Of a DNA stretch of 27,021 nucleotides, positions 171 through 7,414 are shown one piece after another (the first letter of the stretch is position 1; the number at the start of each line of letters is the position of its first letter). This DNA is from a virus (Duplodnaviria; Caudoviricetes). A model generated the notes under the pieces. It was not told the origin of the DNA. It did not search any database and saw only the letters and a list, made by a program, of their open reading frames with translations. The stretch spans positions 1 to 27,021 of IMG/VR virus record IMGVR_UViG_3300010358_000012. One strand, written 5' to 3'. The translations under genes and the position numbers were made by a program.

Positions 171-238
171 AAAAAATAAAAACCAAAAAATTCAGAAAAA
201 ACAAAGGCTTGACAGCCACTTTATAGGGACTATAAAGT
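171..238 (+). promoter_or_regulatory. Sigma70-type promoter with A-tract UP element and overlapping palindromic operator
   Basis: A-tracts 171-205; TTGACA 209-214; TATAAA 231-236 (16-nt spacer); perfect inverted repeat ACTTTATAG-gga-CTATAAAGT 218-238. Confidence 0.7.
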
Positions 239-1008
239 TGGATCTGCGCACCCCCCGAGAATCTAAGCCCCTGCGGGTCCTGTCATTGGGAGCCGGCGTG
301 CAGTCGACCGCCCTGGCGCTGTTGGCCCAGGAGGGCCGCCTCGAGGCGCCCCACATCGCCCTGTTCGCCGACACCGGCTGGGAGCCGGCCGCGGTCTACG
401 ACCACCTGGCTAGGCTTGAGCGGGCGCTGCCGTTCCCCGTGCAGCGGGTCTACAGCCACGCCGGCAAGATCCAGGACAGCATCGCCACCGGACGGTTCGA
501 GCCAATCCCCTGGTTCACCGCGGACGGTGCGATCGGCCGGCGGCAATGCACCAAGGTCTACAAGCTGTACCCGATCCGGCGCCGGGTGCGTGAGCTCCTA
601 GACGGCAAAACGCCGGCTGGCGGCTGCCGGATGCTGATCGGTATCAGCACCGACGAGGCACACCGGATGAAGCCGTCGACGGTCGACTACATCACCAACA
701 CATGGCCTTTGATTGAGATGCGCTGGAGCCGGGCCGATTGCCGCGCCTATCTTGAACGTCGCGGCTGGGCCAGCGTGCCGCGCAGCGCGTGCTGCGGCTG
801 CCCCTATTTGTCGGACGCCGACTGGATCGCCCGCGCGCATGCTCCCGAGTGGCCTGAGACGGTGCGGCTGTCGCACGCCCTGGCGGCCACCGGGCAGTAC
901 ATGCACCGTTACCTCAAACCACTTGATCAGATCGATTTTTCCACCCCGGCCGAGAAGGGCCAAGCTGACCTGTTCGGCGACGATTGCGAAGGCCTCTGTG
1001 GGGTCTGA
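238..1008 (+). CDS. PAPS-reductase-like / adenine nucleotide alpha-hydrolase (PP-loop) family protein with Cys clusters
   Basis: PP-loop-like VLSLGAGVQSTAL, FADTGWE, RQCT..YK..PI, IGISTDE..R, WPLIE, SACCGCPY, terminal CEGLCGV; start codon uncertain (TTG). Confidence 0.8.
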   Translation: MDLRTPRESKPLRVLSLGAGVQSTALALLAQEGRLEAPHIALFADTGWEPAAVYDHLARLERALPFPVQRVYSHAGKIQDSIATGRFEPIPWFTADGAIGRRQCTKVYKLYPIRRRVRELLDGKTPAGGCRMLIGISTDEAHRMKPSTVDYITNTWPLIEMRWSRADCRAYLERRGWASVPRSACCGCPYLSDADWIARAHAPEWPETVRLSHALAATGQYMHRYLKPLDQIDFSTPAEKGQADLFGDDCEGLCGV

Positions 1009-1759
1009 GCCGCCGCTGTTCTTCGCCGGCCTGCACCAACCCAGCGATGCCGGTCAGGTTGAGCGCGGCATGATCTCGGCGCTGCGGCTGCGCTCCCGGC
1101 GCATGCGGCTCAAATGCGCCCCTGACTGGCCCTGGATGCTCGACAGCGGCGCGTTCAGCATTCTCGCCACGCATGGCCACTATCCCCATCCGCCCGCCGT
1201 GTACGCCGCCCTGGTGGGGCGCTGGCGGCACATCGGCAACCTGCTCTGCGCGGTCACCCAGGACTACATGTGCGAGACGATGATGCTGGCCCGCACCGGG
1301 CTGACGATTGCGGACCATCAGCGGCTGACCCTCGAGCGTTACGATGCCCTGGTGGCGTGCGCGCATTTGATGCGCGGCGCGTATCTCATGCCAGTGCTGC
1401 AAGGCTACAGCCCCGCAGATTATGTCCGCCATCTCGACCAGTATGGCGCCCGGCTCGGCCCCGGCGCCTGGGTGGGCGTCGGAAGTCTCTGCAAGAGAAA
1501 CGGCTCGGCCGCGCAGATCGAGGACGTATTGCTGGCAGTCAAACAGACACGGCCGGATTTGCAGCTGCACGGGTTCGGCATCAAGACGACCAGCCTCGGC
1601 AGTGCCCTGGTGCAGGATCTGCTCTATTCGGCCGACAGCATGGCCTGGAGCTTTGCGGCTCGCTACGAGGGCCGCAACCAAAACGACGCGCGCGAGGCGC
1701 AACGGTTCGCTGCCCGGATCGCCAGGCTGCCGCAGCAGACCAGCCTGCTCGGGCCATGA
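998..1759 (+). CDS. tRNA-guanine transglycosylase-like (DpdA-like) protein, putative deazaguanine DNA-modification enzyme
   Basis: Motifs MLDSGAFS, QDYMCE, PVLQG, GVGSLCKR, LHGFG, SADSMAWS typical of phage TGT/DpdA-like TIM barrels; start reassigned to GTG 998 overlapping the end of the upstream gene (track ORF starts at 713). Confidence 0.8.
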   Translation: MGSEPPLFFAGLHQPSDAGQVERGMISALRLRSRRMRLKCAPDWPWMLDSGAFSILATHGHYPHPPAVYAALVGRWRHIGNLLCAVTQDYMCETMMLARTGLTIADHQRLTLERYDALVACAHLMRGAYLMPVLQGYSPADYVRHLDQYGARLGPGAWVGVGSLCKRNGSAAQIEDVLLAVKQTRPDLQLHGFGIKTTSLGSALVQDLLYSADSMAWSFAARYEGRNQNDAREAQRFAARIARLPQQTSLLGP

Positions 1760-2096: not shown

Positions 2097-2460
2097 ACCC
2101 GAGCGTCCCGTCTGGCCAGATGATGGTGACCGGCAGCCACGCCTTGCGGGCGTAGCGCACCGTGGCCCAGGTGCCCGAGCGGAGTTCTTCCTGGTCACCG
2201 TAAGGCGCGGCGTATAACTCGGCCACCGCGTTGACGATCTCGCGGTTGCGCGCGAGATAATCCTCTGACCGATGGCCAGTTGGACGGTGCGGCACCACCC
2301 GATAACCGTAGACGTAGGCCAGTTGGGCGGCCTCCTGGTCGGCGCCGATGGCATCGCCGTGGTGGAACTCACCCTCGCGGTCGCGCAGCAATCCCGCCAA
2401 TGTCGCCTGCTGCGGTTTGGTCATGCCGTGACGGGTGCCAGTGAAACCGATGTTCGTCAC
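2089..2460 (-). CDS. SLOG-superfamily (YspA/DprA-like) nucleotide-binding protein
   Basis: IGFTGTR, FHHGDAIGAD, YLARNREIV, RSGTWATVRYARK motifs; GTG start at 2460 in GTGA overlap. Confidence 0.8.
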   Translation of the reverse strand: MTNIGFTGTRHGMTKPQQATLAGLLRDREGEFHHGDAIGADQEAAQLAYVYGYRVVPHRPTGHRSEDYLARNREIVNAVAELYAAPYGDQEELRSGTWATVRYARKAWLPVTIIWPDGTLGYD

Positions 2461-2678
2461 CCCAGCCTGCCCCGGTGCGCCTTGATCCAGCACGCTTCGC
2501 ACCAGGCCTGCGGGCGCTTGCCCGGTGTGAGCGAGAACAACCCGGCGGCCCGGTCAGCTTCCTGGCCGGGCGCCACCGCGAACACCTGATCGGACCCACA
2601 GTCGCACGTCAGCCCGAGCTTTACCGCCACCGCGGGCGGTGCCTTGGTGCTGCCGATCGCGAGCCGTCGCATTGCCAT
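2457..2678 (-). CDS. Small putative zinc-binding protein (CDC...CEAC)
   Basis: 73 aa; CxC and CxxC pairs; stop overlaps the next start; ATG lies in the last pentamers of the array. Confidence 0.6.
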   Translation of the reverse strand: MAMRRLAIGSTKAPPAVAVKLGLTCDCGSDQVFAVAPGQEADRAAGLFSLTPGKRPQAWCEACWIKAHRGRLG

Positions 2679-3540
2679 GCCTGCCTATCCTTGCCACGCC
2701 TTGCCCAGACCCGCGTTGCCGGGCCTGCCCGGCCGGGCCGGGCCGGACCCCGCCCCGCCTTGCCGTGCCAAGCCATGCCGGGCCTGCCCCGCCGAGCCAT
2801 GCCGTGCCCCACCGAGCGGCTCCCCGTCGAGCCCCGACGAGCCGTGCCTGCCGTGCCATGACCCGCCTGTCCCGGCCCTGCCACGCCCACCCACGCCTGC
2901 CGTGCCATGCCGAACCCCTCCGTGCCTCGGCTAGCCAAGCCTGCCCGGCCCCGCCATGCCGCGGCATCCCCAGACCGGCCACGCCTAGCCCTGCCTGCCG
3001 AGCCACGCCTAGACCGGCCACGCCTAGCCCTGCCTGCCGAGCCACGCCTGTCCTTCCCAGGCCACGCCGCGTCCCGCCGTGCCACGCCTGCCAAGCCACA
3101 CCCCGCCTGCCTCGCCACGCCCAGCCACTCCCCGCCGCGCCGTACCTCGTCGGGCCTTGCCCCGCCTGCCCTGCCCTGCCTGCCAAGCCTAGCCGTGCCT
3201 TGCCAGACCATGCCAAGCCCAGCGTTGCCCTGCCTGCCGTGCCTCGTCACGTCTTGCCGCGCCAAGCCTCGCCGCGCCTGCCCTGTCGAGCCGGGCGCCG
3301 CCATGGCTTGCCACGCCCACCCAAGCCCTGCCTGCCCTGCCCGGCCCCGCCTAACCGTGCCTAGCCTTCCCGTGCCCTGCCTTGCCTGCCCTGCCGAGCC
3401 ATGCCACTCCGGGCCGCGCCCCGCCTGCCAAGCCGCGCCGCGCCTTGCCCCGTCGAGCCCAACCTCTCCATGCCGGACCTCACCGAGCCTGCCCAGCGTT
3501 GCCCTGCCATGCCCTTCCACGTCTTGCCACGCCTGCCCCG
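2672..3540 (-). repeat. Non-coding GGC-NN pentamer array (156 pentamers in 18 units delimited by GGCA); putative guide-RNA array
   Basis: Minus strand reads GGCGT GGCAA GACGT GGAAG GGCAT...; 19 GGCAGGC junctions (plus-strand gcctgcc at 2679,2723,2782,2846,2895,2939,2993,3032,3086,3105,3164,3178,3232,3276,3330,3384,3423,3487,3531), all spacings equal 5n+4. Confidence 0.92.
2972..3049. repeat. Exact 39-nt tandem duplication inside the array
   Basis: agaccggccacgcctagccctgcctgccgagccacgcct at 2972-3010 and 3011-3049. Confidence 0.95.
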
Positions 3541-3993
3541 TCAGTCCGCCGCGGCGATCTCGACCGCCGGCTTGCGGCGGCGACGCGACACCTTGTCCCG
3601 CGCCGCCCACACTTCGCTCAACTCCTGCAAGTGCTGATATTTCCGCTGCACGCGCTCCAACTCCGCCAGCGCATCGCGCAGCATCACCTCGCGCAGATCG
3701 ATCCGCTCCAGCACCTCGTTGATCGGGCGATAGCCGCCCTCCTTCCGATCGATCGACAGCGAGACGAACTTCCGGGCGCCCTCACTGTCCACGATATGCA
3801 CCGAGATCAGCGTCCGAACCTGCCAGATGCGATATCGCTCCCCAGCAACCGAATCGTCCCATTCGAGCTTCGCGTGCAAGTGTGAGTCGACATTGGTCCG
3901 CGCCCACTCGACCGCCTCGGCCGGATTGATCTTGCCCTCGTCGTTCTGCAACGCGAGCAATTCATCCCCGATGCTGTCCATCTGCTTGCTCAT
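3541..3993 (-). CDS. Conserved-looking phage hypothetical protein, putative partner of the RAMP/array system
   Basis: 150 aa, 'AVEWAR...HLHAKLEWDDSVAGERYRIWQVRTLI' motif; ATGA-coupled to the RAMP-like gene; its stop abuts the array. Confidence 0.85.
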   Translation of the reverse strand: MSKQMDSIGDELLALQNDEGKINPAEAVEWARTNVDSHLHAKLEWDDSVAGERYRIWQVRTLISVHIVDSEGARKFVSLSIDRKEGGYRPINEVLERIDLREVMLRDALAELERVQRKYQHLQELSEVWAARDKVSRRRRKPAVEIAAAD

Positions 3994-4706
3994 CCCTCCA
4001 CCACCTCGAACCGGCCCCAGCCCAGGCCGTTGCTGTTCGGGCTGTCCGGCCGGCCCTCGCCGATGCCGACCTGCAAGCCGGCGCGCATCATCAAGTTATA
4101 AACGTCGGTGGCGCTGAACTGGTCCTCGTCCCAGGTCACCCGCACCGAGGCCCGCCACTCTTCCCACGCCGGCCGCCAGCGGATGTCAGCGACACCGCTC
4201 TCGTTGCGCACCGAGGCCTGATGAATGTGCGGCTCGCCAAGAATGCGCACCAAGGGCGTGCCGTCATTCCGATCGACGCCGTCGGCCTCGATAAAGATGC
4301 TCATCTTCGCGTGGGTCATTTTGAAGCCGACCAGCCGGCACGCAGCGATGCAGGCATTGCGGAACGCTGGCGCCGGAATGCCGGGCCAACCTTCTTTACT
4401 GACGTGCTTCGCCGCTTCGTAAATCGCCTCAAAATCTTTCGGCGTCCGGGTGCGCCGGCTGCGGCCTTGCTGGCCGGCGCGTTGCGTCTCCTCCATCTGC
4501 TTGCGCTGCTTTTCACTGAACGCGTGCTGGACATATTGCGATATGCCCTGGATCACGATGGTCGCTTCGCGGAGCCTCGGCCGGGTGATCCGAACCTGCT
4601 CAGGCGCCGAGGCCAATGCGGTGAGCCGCTGCATCTCGTCAGGGGAGACCGGCGGTACCTTCAACCGCTTGGTCCCGCCGTTCGACTTCGTTTGACTGAG
4701 TGACAT
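3990..4706 (-). CDS. Stand-alone RAMP/Cas7-like RNA-binding protein
   Basis: N-terminal strand TIVIQGISQYVQH; GIPAPAFRNACIAAC resembling the RAMP 'IPGSSLKGALR' helix; thumb-like VRNESGVADIRWRP; C-terminal Gly-rich loop VGIGEGRPDSPNSNGLGWGRFEV; GGAGG RBS. Confidence 0.75.
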   Translation of the reverse strand: MSLSQTKSNGGTKRLKVPPVSPDEMQRLTALASAPEQVRITRPRLREATIVIQGISQYVQHAFSEKQRKQMEETQRAGQQGRSRRTRTPKDFEAIYEAAKHVSKEGWPGIPAPAFRNACIAACRLVGFKMTHAKMSIFIEADGVDRNDGTPLVRILGEPHIHQASVRNESGVADIRWRPAWEEWRASVRVTWDEDQFSATDVYNLMMRAGLQVGIGEGRPDSPNSNGLGWGRFEVVEG

Positions 4707-4721
4707 GTGTTTTCCTCCGAA

Positions 4722-4958
4722 TCAGTTGCAATGAGTGGTGCCAAACGAGCCGCTGTACCGGGTGGTGCAATTCCTGGTTTCACCGTTCGGCCCCACGAAG
4801 TGGTACTGGCGGAACGATCCCGTCTGTCGAGACGAGCCGATCCAACCGTCGTCACTGTGGTAGTTGGTGAACGGTCCCGAGCGTTGAGACGACCAGTTCT
4901 GTGCCCCAGCAGGAAATGCTGCCAACGACAGCACGGTGATGAGAGCGAATGATTTCAT
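4722..4958 (-). CDS. Small secreted/periplasmic protein with signal peptide
   Basis: MKSFALITVLSLAAFPAGA|Q Sec-type signal; two C-terminal Cys; AAGGAG RBS. Confidence 0.8.
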   Translation of the reverse strand: MKSFALITVLSLAAFPAGAQNWSSQRSGPFTNYHSDDGWIGSSRQTGSFRQYHFVGPNGETRNCTTRYSGSFGTTHCN

Positions 4959-5149
4959 GGTTTGTCTCCTTCAAGGATCGCCTCGGCGGCCTTGCGGATT
5001 TCCCCGAGGCAGCGCTCGACACGGACCTGATCAGTCCAGTCTTCCCTGGCGTCGGCGAGGTCTTTGGGCAGGCTGTCCAAGGCTGCGATGATGCCGCGCG
5101 CTCGCGCCTGGATGATGCGCAGCTTCCAGGCCAGATCGGGCACGCTCAC
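4955..5149 (-). CDS. Hypothetical helical protein (64 aa)
   Basis: GTGA and ATGA overlaps with both neighbours. Confidence 0.7.
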   Translation of the reverse strand: MSVPDLAWKLRIIQARARGIIAALDSLPKDLADAREDWTDQVRVERCLGEIRKAAEAILEGDKP

Positions 5150-5484
5150 CACACCACCTTGATGGTGTCGGCTTTGACGCCGGTGAGTTCGGAGAGCCGC
5201 TTGACCAGCATCTGATTGGGTCGCGCGGTGCCGCCCAGCAGATTGTAGTAACCTTGCCGCGAGATCCCGATTTCCTTGGCCCGCTCGGTGTGGGTCTCGC
5301 CCGGCACCTTCAGCAAAATCTCCTTGGCGGTGGGCAAGGGCTGGATGGTTTTCTTCAGCCGCACCGCCATAGTCATGAGCGCGCCAAGATCGGGCCGCTC
5401 CGGCGGGCCTAACTGCGCGGCCGCCATGCCGGAGATCAGCTCGTCCAGCAACTTGACGGCCCGGTCATACTCTTTTCTGGTCAT
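5146..5484 (-). CDS. XRE-family helix-turn-helix regulator
   Basis: C-terminal HTH THTERAKEIGISRQGYYNLLGGTARP...LVKRLSELTGV; start reassigned to ATG 5484; first gene of the leftward operon. Confidence 0.8.
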   Translation of the reverse strand: MTRKEYDRAVKLLDELISGMAAAQLGPPERPDLGALMTMAVRLKKTIQPLPTAKEILLKVPGETHTERAKEIGISRQGYYNLLGGTARPNQMLVKRLSELTGVKADTIKVVW

Positions 5485-5552
5485 CGTGTTGTCACTCTTG
5501 CATTGACGACGAAACACGTCCATACATAGACGACAAACGCGGCGGTGGTCAA
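5485..5552. promoter_or_regulatory. Divergent promoter/operator region
   Basis: 68-nt gap between divergent operons; TTGACG (+, 5503-5508), TTGACC (-, 5552-5547) with TATGTA 18 nt downstream; repeated GACGAC(G)AAAC at 5505 and 5529. Confidence 0.55.
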
Positions 5553-5771
5553 ATGATTCGTGAATTCTCTGTTGGATGCAGCAAAACCGTGAACTTGGGG
5601 AACTACAACTCAATCCGGGTGGAGGCGTCGCTGACGCTGGTAGTCCCGGAGCGCACCACCCTAGAGGCGATGAAGCCAAAGGCGCTCGAGGATCTCAGGT
5701 TGCTGCTCGAGGACGTCTACCGCTCACAGTTGAAAGAAAAGCCTCAGAAGGAGCCCGCGAAAGATGAGTAA
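5553..5771 (+). CDS. Small phage protein with NLGNYxSxRV motif
   Basis: 72 aa, KTVNLGNYNSIRVEAS; overlaps the start of the recombinase gene. Confidence 0.8.
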   Translation: MIREFSVGCSKTVNLGNYNSIRVEASLTLVVPERTTLEAMKPKALEDLRLLLEDVYRSQLKEKPQKEPAKDE

Positions 5772-6510
5772 TCTCATGTTGCCCCAGACCTACTCTGAGT
5801 TAGAGCGCTGGGCGCAGAAGGCGGCCAAGACCGAGATGATCCCCAAGGCCTACCGGGGCAAGCCGGACGACATCACCATTGCCATCCAGTACGGATCTGA
5901 GATCGGGCTGGGTCACATGGAGTCTCTGAAATCGATAGCGGTGATCAATGGAAACCCCGCGGTTTATGGCGATGGTCTGTTGTCGATCTGCCAGCGCCAT
6001 CCGGACTTCGAGGATCTGATCGAGGAGCCCGAGATCAACGACAAGGGGGAGGTACTGGCGTTCACCGCGATTGCGATGCGCCGCGGCCGCAAGCCCAAGA
6101 TCTTCCGGTTCAGCCAGGAGGACGCCCAGCGTGCGGCCCTCTGGGGCAAGCCTGGCCCGTGGACGCAGTATCCGCAGCGCATGTTGCAGATGCGCGCCCG
6201 AGGGTTCGCGCTGCGCGACCAGTTCGCCGACGCGCTCAAGGGCCTGATCAGCCGCGAGGAGGCCGCCGACTATCCGACGGTGGACGGCTCCGGCCAGGAG
6301 ACGCTGGGGCGGGCGCAGTTGCTGGAAGCGGAGGATCTGCTGGTGAAGGCCGGCATGGATTCGAACAGCTTGCTGAACACGATGTTCACCGGCATCGACC
6401 GGCTCGAGGACATCCCGATCAAGGACTGGCCGCGGGTCAGGAACGCGCTCTCGATGCGCGCCGCCCGGCGCAATCCACCGCCGCAGGACGGAGGAGAGGA
6501 GAAGACGTGA
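5764..6510 (+). CDS. recT: RecT/Redbeta-like single-strand annealing recombinase
   Basis: IPKAYRGKPDDI, G.EIGL, SIAVINGNP, FS.EDA.RA.LWGK.GPW.QYP.RML.MRAR.FALRD.FAD.L.G. Confidence 0.85.
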   Translation: MSNLMLPQTYSELERWAQKAAKTEMIPKAYRGKPDDITIAIQYGSEIGLGHMESLKSIAVINGNPAVYGDGLLSICQRHPDFEDLIEEPEINDKGEVLAFTAIAMRRGRKPKIFRFSQEDAQRAALWGKPGPWTQYPQRMLQMRARGFALRDQFADALKGLISREEAADYPTVDGSGQETLGRAQLLEAEDLLVKAGMDSNSLLNTMFTGIDRLEDIPIKDWPRVRNALSMRAARRNPPPQDGGEEKT

Positions 6511-6722
6511 CCGAGCAATTCATCGAGGTGACCGAGGCAGACGAAGCTGACGGCGACCGCTTGGTGCTGATCAACCTGCGCGCCGTCAGCCATATCGCGA
6601 CCCACCCTACCGACAAGGAGGTTACGGCCGTTTACTTCAACCAGGATGAGTACCTGCTGGTCAGGCAAGGCTACGACCAGATCATCGAGGCGTTGGGCTG
6701 GATAAGGCAGAAGAAACCATGA
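6507..6722 (+). CDS. Hypothetical small beta-rich protein (71 aa, MTEQFIEVTE...)
   Basis: GTGA/ATGA overlaps on both sides; GGAGAGGAG RBS. Confidence 0.75.
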   Translation: MTEQFIEVTEADEADGDRLVLINLRAVSHIATHPTDKEVTAVYFNQDEYLLVRQGYDQIIEALGWIRQKKP

Positions 6723-7414
6723 AGATCATCGACACCGACCAGCGCAGCGATCGCTGGCACAGCCTGCGCATGGGCCGGCCCACGGCGTCGCAGTTCGATC
6801 GGATCGTGCTGCCCAACGGCAAGGCCTCCGGTAAGGCCCGCGGCTACCTCTATGAGTTGCTGTGGCAGCGCCTGACCGGGCAATCCACCGACAGGGATCT
6901 CTCGCGGGTGCCGGCGGTGCAGTGGGGCATCCAGCACGAGGATGAGGCCGCGCAGCAGTTTGAGGCGATCGAGGGCAAGCGGCTCAAGCGCATCGGGTTC
7001 TGCCTCTCCGACGACCGCCGCCTCGGCTGCAGCCCCGACCGCGTCATCGAGGGCGCCAATGAGGGCGTCGAGATCAAGTGCCCGGAGGGGCCGACCCATA
7101 TCGGCAACTTGCTGGCGCCGCTCGAGCTCAACGTCGCCGGAGGTGACCCGCTCGAGCGCTACTTCGCCCAGGTGCAGGGCCAGATCTTCATCTGTGGGTT
7201 CGACCGCGTGCATCTCTTCTCGTACCGGCCGGAAGCACCGCCCACGATCATTACGGCCGAGCCGGACGCCGTGTTCATCAGCAAGATGGCAGCGCTGCTG
7301 CACCAGTTCTGCGACTCGCTCGACGCGTGTGAGAAGTTTCTGCGTGCCTTGCCGGGCGGGTTCAGACGGCTGCCCAACGACCCGCTGCCGGGGTTCCCTC
7401 AAGAGGAGGAGTGA
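6719..7414 (+). CDS. Lambda-exonuclease / YqaJ-like viral recombination nuclease
   Basis: QRSDRWHSLRMGRPTAS, WGI.HE..A, GCSPDRVI, VEIKCP (PD-(D/E)xK), Y.AQVQGQ. Confidence 0.9.
   Translation: MKIIDTDQRSDRWHSLRMGRPTASQFDRIVLPNGKASGKARGYLYELLWQRLTGQSTDRDLSRVPAVQWGIQHEDEAAQQFEAIEGKRLKRIGFCLSDDRRLGCSPDRVIEGANEGVEIKCPEGPTHIGNLLAPLELNVAGGDPLERYFAQVQGQIFICGFDRVHLFSYRPEAPPTIITAEPDAVFISKMAALLHQFCDSLDACEKFLRALPGGFRRLPNDPLPGFPQEEE

Follow-up and report, generated by a model that had tools for sequence, protein, structure and literature searches.

A GGCA-delimited, staggered pentamer array beside a Vipr-like gene in a soil phage fragment: a predicted multi-guide VIPR locus

The window analysed here, a whole stretch of 27,021 nucleotides from a record listed as a virus (G000), is a 27 kb phage fragment with terminase, major head protein, RecT/YqaJ and HTH genes, and its best public holders are soil metagenomes; the public runs listed as holding it include no RNA set, which argues neither way. 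It contains a repeat of about 850 bases in which a strict five-nucleotide register is punctuated by the tetramer GGCA, and the question that this locus raises is what such a repeat is for. We propose that it is very probably a multi-guide VIPR array of about 16 guides, predicted to direct the neighbouring Vipr protein to the DNA of rival mobile elements, with its free dinucleotides as the DNA-targeting code that Vipr reads, a code absent from the preliminary description of this DNA. As both the VIPR system and the staggered layout have already been described in 2026 preprints, the kind itself is not new. In minus-strand order, the 238-aa vipr ORF is followed by a 150-aa ORF, the array and a 73-aa ORF, as follows:

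3990..4706, minus strand, predicted vipr gene (238 aa), with a RAMP (Cas7/Csm3-like) fold and a glycine-rich loop at the C-terminus
3541..3993, minus strand, candidate vap gene for a mostly helical protein of 150 aa, stopping a few bases short of the first GGCA and the start of the array
2682..3533, minus strand, predicted staggered vrRNA array of 18 units, each of 2-12 GGC/NN pentamers and closed by GGCA
2457..2678, minus strand, 73-aa ORF with a start codon that lies in the final array pentamers

Because the 73-aa ORF starts within the last pentamers, there is no separate tail between the array and the next gene. A Pfam scan of 20 window proteins showed no cas genes, and the locus has the minimal VIPR form, being phage-borne and having a candidate vap gene but neither a CRISPR array nor cas genes. 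PAPS-reductase-like and DpdA-like genes also lie in the window (238-1759), which suggests DNA modification by this phage.

The preliminary description had listed 19 GGCAGGC junctions at 5n+4 spacings, units of 2-12 pentamers and no other indel, and a direct parse of the sequence reproduced all of this exactly. Minus-strand GGCAGGC (GCCTGCC on the given strand) occurs 19 times from 2679 to 3531, with junction spacings of 44, 59, 64, 49, 44, 54, 39, 54, 19, 59, 14, 54, 44, 54, 54, 39, 64 and 44 nt, which sum to 852 and are all 4 mod 5. The array totals 156 pentamers, 16 of the 18 units hold 7-12 of them, and the GGCA steps are the only breaks of register. GGCAGGC was far rarer in 500 dinucleotide shuffles of the array (mean 2.2, maximum 9) and in 1000 sequences made by putting the pentamers in random order with the tetramers left out (mean 0.21, maximum 2). 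Within the array, GGCAG stands before GC at 19 places, which are all of the junctions, and before GG at 11 in-register places. Successive units share 1 nt, GGCA/G overlapping the next GGC, as is the rule in staggered arrays. The triplets are GGC (111), GGT (10), GGA (9), GAC (8), CGC (5), GGG (5), GTC (5) and GCC (3), so that 121/156 are GGY and 35/156 are not, and all 16 dinucleotides are present. The entropy at pentamer positions 1-5 is 0.20, 0.63, 0.85, 1.91 and 1.99 bits, respectively; these counts and this per-position entropy, a check that the preliminary description had itself suggested, bear out its view of a mostly GGC triplet with a freely varying dinucleotide. Unlike a CRISPR array, it has neither long direct repeats with contiguous spacers nor cas genes. 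An Rfam search gave no match, no terminator-like site was seen at the array end and no promoter-like site in 2300-5800, and a codon test of the window dinucleotides, sense versus antisense, did no better than uniform.

Three features depart from the typical unit:

3167..3180, minus strand, unit 8, of 2 pentamers only
3089..3107, minus strand, unit 10, of 3 pentamers only, where run X4 has 30 extra bases that make a 9-pentamer unit
2972..3049, no strand assigned, a 39-nt exact tandem duplication that makes unit 12 a hybrid of its neighbours

Given the 30 extra bases of run X4 in unit 10, the short units are likely to be deletion remnants; unit 8 is probably a remnant too short for specifying a target. 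In a possible source run, contigs cover 2400-3001 and 3020-4518 with zero differing letters, which is not independent support, and the contig bridging the 39-nt duplication has a depth of 9.8 against 22-24 alongside. The depth suggests that the duplication is possibly carried by part of the population only.

The register also holds among strains. Aligned pieces from related soil strains differed by net -10, -5, +29, -5, +30, -20 and -10 bases, all 5n or 5n+4, the strain joints being metagenome contigs taken at a lowered likeness threshold, with other organisms possibly included. Of 48 substitutions 40 were listed, and among these dinucleotides took 23, triplets 16 (for the most part exchanges of one tolerated form for another) and a delimiter 1; in runs X2 and X4 vap-proximal units were lacking or replaced. 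These differences bear on whether the repeat might simply encode a low-complexity protein, its periodicity a by-product of coding. ORFs of 220-329 aa do cross the array on both strands; however, the period is 5 and not 3, most of the strain differences (net -5, -10, -20, +29, +30) would shift the frame, and variation is concentrated at pentamer positions 4-5, and we consider a coding origin next to impossible.

The guide-array reading depends on the identity of the adjacent gene. The 238-aa protein had no match in Pfam, and its best PDB sequence match was SUSP1 Vipr, at a single-sequence E of 0.062, which became 2.1e-6 (chain 36pp_D) with a profile of 10 sequences (A1). Its structural model (pLDDT 72.6) gave Csm3/Cmr/Cas7 chains as best Foldseek matches (E ~2e-4). 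The SUSP1 RNA-contact residues R138, D177 and R179 align to R178, E217 and R219, which are invariant in A1, as is the G-loop motif. From these alignments and the model, the 238-aa protein is identified as a predicted Vipr, a RAMP protein with a single RRM, a thumb and a glycine-rich loop, of the kind encoded beside VIPR arrays. At E<=0.001 it has 2315 relatives among 50%-identity representatives. In all 10 A1 sequences a glycine (G218 of the window protein) aligns to SUSP1 W178, which, in the available part of its structural description, stacks onto the second G of the triplet (10.64898/2026.04.26.720927); the glycine may explain the tolerance of GAC, GTC and GCC triplets. The 150-aa protein has a homolog at 79/89 vipr loci and belongs to PHROG 15946, whose function is not known; despite a model pLDDT of 91.1, neither a sequence nor a Foldseek search of the PDB matched it at E<=0.001 (best VIA Z 4.9).

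Homologs of this vipr gene allowed the delimiter to be followed beyond the window. Arrays were present at 81/89 vipr loci, with a modal unit of 9-10 pentamers. There were 821 off-register steps in this set, of which 795 were 4 nt long; 595 were GGCA and 81 CGCA, together 676/821, and GGCA was the commonest delimiter in 69/81 array loci. These are locus counts and not independent events, because some loci are near-duplicates. The GTDB loci had arrays at 49/60, with GGCA at 257/376 steps. The selection on register that had been proposed for the window is thereby supported, strain indels keeping the register and the delimiter being conserved in homologous arrays. No conserved 3' tail was detected, 167 array-downstream 40-mers being no more alike than random (14.2 versus 14.4 matches). 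Across the homologous arrays (L001-L089), GGC was rarer ahead of dinucleotides starting with C (0.44-0.63 versus 0.61-0.76 for others), and it was the first pentamer past the delimiter in 428/461 units, compared to 286/461 at mid-unit.

The definitions of VIPR, of its one-base-skip code and of 'staggered arrays' come from 10.64898/2026.04.26.720920, whose fig. S18 deals with this last layout, consecutive guides sharing 1 nt. The legend of that figure gives processed vrRNAs with ends at these boundaries, and sRNA-seq is given for the ribozyme-interspersed and single-guide layouts only. Its text holds no delimiter sequence, staggered-array targets or staggered sRNA-seq, and the letters GGCA are absent from the text of its supplement; figures or supplementary tables may show delimiter, type and targets. 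For SUSP1, the parts available of this preprint and of 10.64898/2026.04.26.720927 describe one Vipr protomer per pentamer with the triplet hidden, and dinucleotides that pair with DNA while every third base is skipped, binding of which silences transcription. Recombinase targeting and anti-vipr guides appear in the accessible portion of 10.64898/2026.10.15.759431, and we also drew on part of a further preprint (10.64898/2026.10.21.760802).

By every feature tested the locus belongs to VIPR with a staggered array, and it is placed at that level and not within types I-VII. It resembles the published staggered systems in its phage-borne two-gene locus of vipr and vap, its GGY/NN pentamers and its 1-nt overlap, the end of one guide being the start of the next. 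With the type II VIPR of SUSP1 and P. fulva, as far as these are covered by the portions available, it shares the RAMP fold, the thumb and G-loop arginine and acidic residues, the one-base-skip code at the wobble base, and recombinases and rival vipr genes as targets. It does not fit the tailed guides of type II: SUSP1 is described in the same portions as having four separate RNAs of ~100 nt, each with a structured 3' tail, whereas the window has 18 fused, tail-less units with no sequence between them. The window also differs from SUSP1 in its more degenerate triplets (35/156 non-GGY), in the glycine in place of W178 and in an accessory protein that has no match to any solved structure. Because of this glycine and the lack of a conserved 3' tail, the details of the mechanism may differ from those in SUSP1. 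Class 1 CRISPR systems, with their Cas7/Csm3 backbones, are alike in having a RAMP filament on guide RNA, a multi-guide precursor and unit content that varies between strains; in contrast to these, the window has no long direct repeat or contiguous spacer, and its specificity is spread over dinucleotides.

Whether the units behave as guides was examined in the homologous arrays, whose units were decoded by the one-base-skip code and searched against the fetched loci with arrays masked. For 434 units, hits with <=2 mismatches numbered 33 with a skip of 1, compared to 13, 13 and 12 with skips of 0, 2 and 3, respectively. In a search of 627 units against 3.56 Mb, 11 reached >=18 matched bases, versus 2-5 in five order-shuffles. 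When 765 homolog and window units were compared with 249 vipr/vap genes, five scored >=14, against a mean of 0.15 and a maximum of 1 in 20 shuffles, and no score >=14 arose with skips of 0, 2 or 3; in the seven best of these matches the skipped base was the wobble position. The predicted targets of the strong homolog units were vipr/vap genes of other elements. One-base skipping with the skip at the wobble base was thus found for homolog units and, in the window, for unit 11 only.

The matches also stop at the delimiter. Across 11 selected matches, 207/224 bases agreed inside the unit and 22/74 in the adjoining units, and the delimiter itself read as a dinucleotide matched at 9/20 bases; these 11 were kept from 15 listed matches, four (L001, L036, L045 and L246) having been dropped by judgement, which favours the result. 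A less selected test of interior dinucleotides gave 11/237 for real units versus 7-9 in shuffles, and 3 exact cores versus 0 in shuffles, with the first dinucleotide after GGCA agreeing in all three. Neighbouring units 4 and 5 of one array (L049) matched two different motifs at separate loci (L263 and L051), both of which we take to belong to one ATPase family. GGCA as a guide boundary, proposed in the preliminary description as a processing or boundary signal, is therefore supported, being conserved in homologous arrays and marking where decoded target matches end. By dinucleotide position, agreement with targets was 20/22 bases at the first of the unit and 14/22 at the last. One record in which no A1-type vipr was found (L165) has a minus-strand array (called at 3998-4074) with a 12-pentamer unit that matches at 23/24 bases by the one-base-skip code, in at least 4 related phages (L168, L147, L144 and L114).

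These decoded matches also weigh on a second alternative, that the repeat merely drifts as a microsatellite, or is a hot spot of recombination, and does not encode guides. The exact 39-nt duplication and the two very short units would be its slippage products, and most window units have no target found. Against it stand the near-maximal dinucleotide entropy next to conserved triplets, the tight linkage to vipr and the restriction of decoded matches to a one-base skip, and the vipr/vap gene test weakens it; we rate it as very improbable.

For the window array itself, read as a set of guides, one unit gave a candidate target:

3035..3088, minus strand, unit 11, of 10 pentamers, a guide whose predicted target is the VTEAVLNHVS motif of tyrosine integrases

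The unit 11 query comprised nine dinucleotides with one two-way position, and it had 36 IMG/VR matches, 33 of them in the VTEAVLNHVS motif of a phage integrase. The tenth dinucleotide, outside the query, agreed in 10 of these 33, and most of those without it use an alternative serine codon. The window version of unit 11 matches this integrase catalytic-region motif at 19/20 bases, with one mismatch; all of the integrase sites carry the variant base of runs X2, X4 and X6, and a perfect match needs that variant. The integrases are carried by small integrated phage-like elements, one of which (16.8 kb) has integrase, primase, portal, head, tail and terminase genes. In our judgement, unit 11 quite likely targets this motif, as predicted from the decoded letters. 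As it was one of six units scanned against the collections, a chance match on a conserved motif is possible, and by our own estimate this has a small though appreciable probability.

The unit 11 site was found in 0/251 sampled alphaproteobacterial genomes (the class of G043), the fifteen other units had no matches in 454 kb of integrase-bearing elements, and homolog units searched against 32 integrases gave 1 strong match in 751. No target above chance was obtained for 15/16 of the long window units in the searches run. The 16 long units gave nothing above chance against up to 2.9 Mb of relatives (among them 80 terminase relatives with their far ends) or against vipr/vap genes, and had no self-target within the 27-kb window (best match <=81%); window units decoded to peptides likewise matched nothing in 150 Vipr homologs. 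In exact collection scans, the core of unit 16 had 3 viral matches, units 4 and 9 had 1 match each, and unit 2 had 1 metagenome match and 0 in GTDB, none of which extended. The core of unit 7 had 83 matches, mostly in AT-rich records, with both flanks agreeing in 1/83, and these were taken as chance.

The mechanism that we propose would place vipr, vap and the array on one early transcript. By analogy with SUSP1, Vipr would coat each unit with one protomer per pentamer. The 4-nt step would break the 5-nt register of the filament, ending one filament and starting the next, so that a filament could not read across the delimiter. The RNA would then probably be cut near GGCA/G by some nuclease, and each unit would, again as in SUSP1, silence a DNA site in a competing element. 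New guides may arise via point changes in dinucleotides, 5n indels and recombination between units.

The cut is the step on which a rival model differs, in which Vipr filaments would lie in separate blocks on one long, uncut transcript with GGCA as a register break only. It accords with the array having no evident tail, ribozyme or terminator and running into the next start codon, the staggered layout is outside those confirmed by sRNA-seq (10.64898/2026.04.26.720920), and none of our evidence on targets discriminates between a cut and an uncut RNA. However, the fig. S18 legend of that preprint has processed vrRNA ends at the boundaries, and the strict A after the triplet (GGCA or CGCA at 676/821 steps) would seem to exceed the need of a mere register slip; we consider an uncut array unlikely. 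With cleavage, a tentative and rather speculative possibility is that staggered arrays are self-processing, tail-less cassettes, in which the Vipr filament or the 150-aa partner cuts GGCA/G, like an ancestral Cas6, and scaffold recombination gains, loses and rewrites units, giving heritable RNA-guided immunity without Cas1. If true, this would bear on how the first CRISPR-like multi-guide arrays matured and were updated.

What is added here to the published system is a conserved delimiter with a named sequence (usually GGCA, sometimes CGCA), computational evidence that units are independent guides, a candidate integrase target, strain-level guide turnover, and the occurrence of this layout in cultured phages that infect Mycobacterium smegmatis and Gordonia terrae. 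The maturation of staggered guides and the origin of new ones become directly testable questions, a modest but usable contribution. In Quico (M. smegmatis), Pipp (G. terrae) and Cy-LDV1, GGCA-staggered arrays lie beside unannotated vipr homologs:

2659-2908, array of phage Quico (L012)
3566-3799, array of phage Pipp (L013)
4632-5580, array of phage Cy-LDV1 (L011)

This Vipr clade was found in 0/31 terminase-related records (G001-G031), many of them incomplete, and the cassette therefore looks patchily distributed; a search for the window terminase in five genomes that carry Vipr homologs found none. Three terminase relatives (L169 at 3435-6776, and also L182 and L137) contain pentamer runs without stagger, which keep a single register for as many as 87 units. 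Those of L169 flank a G-loop gene that profile A1 misses and that resembles a Vipr from a different clade; such runs offer a natural contrast to the staggered layout.
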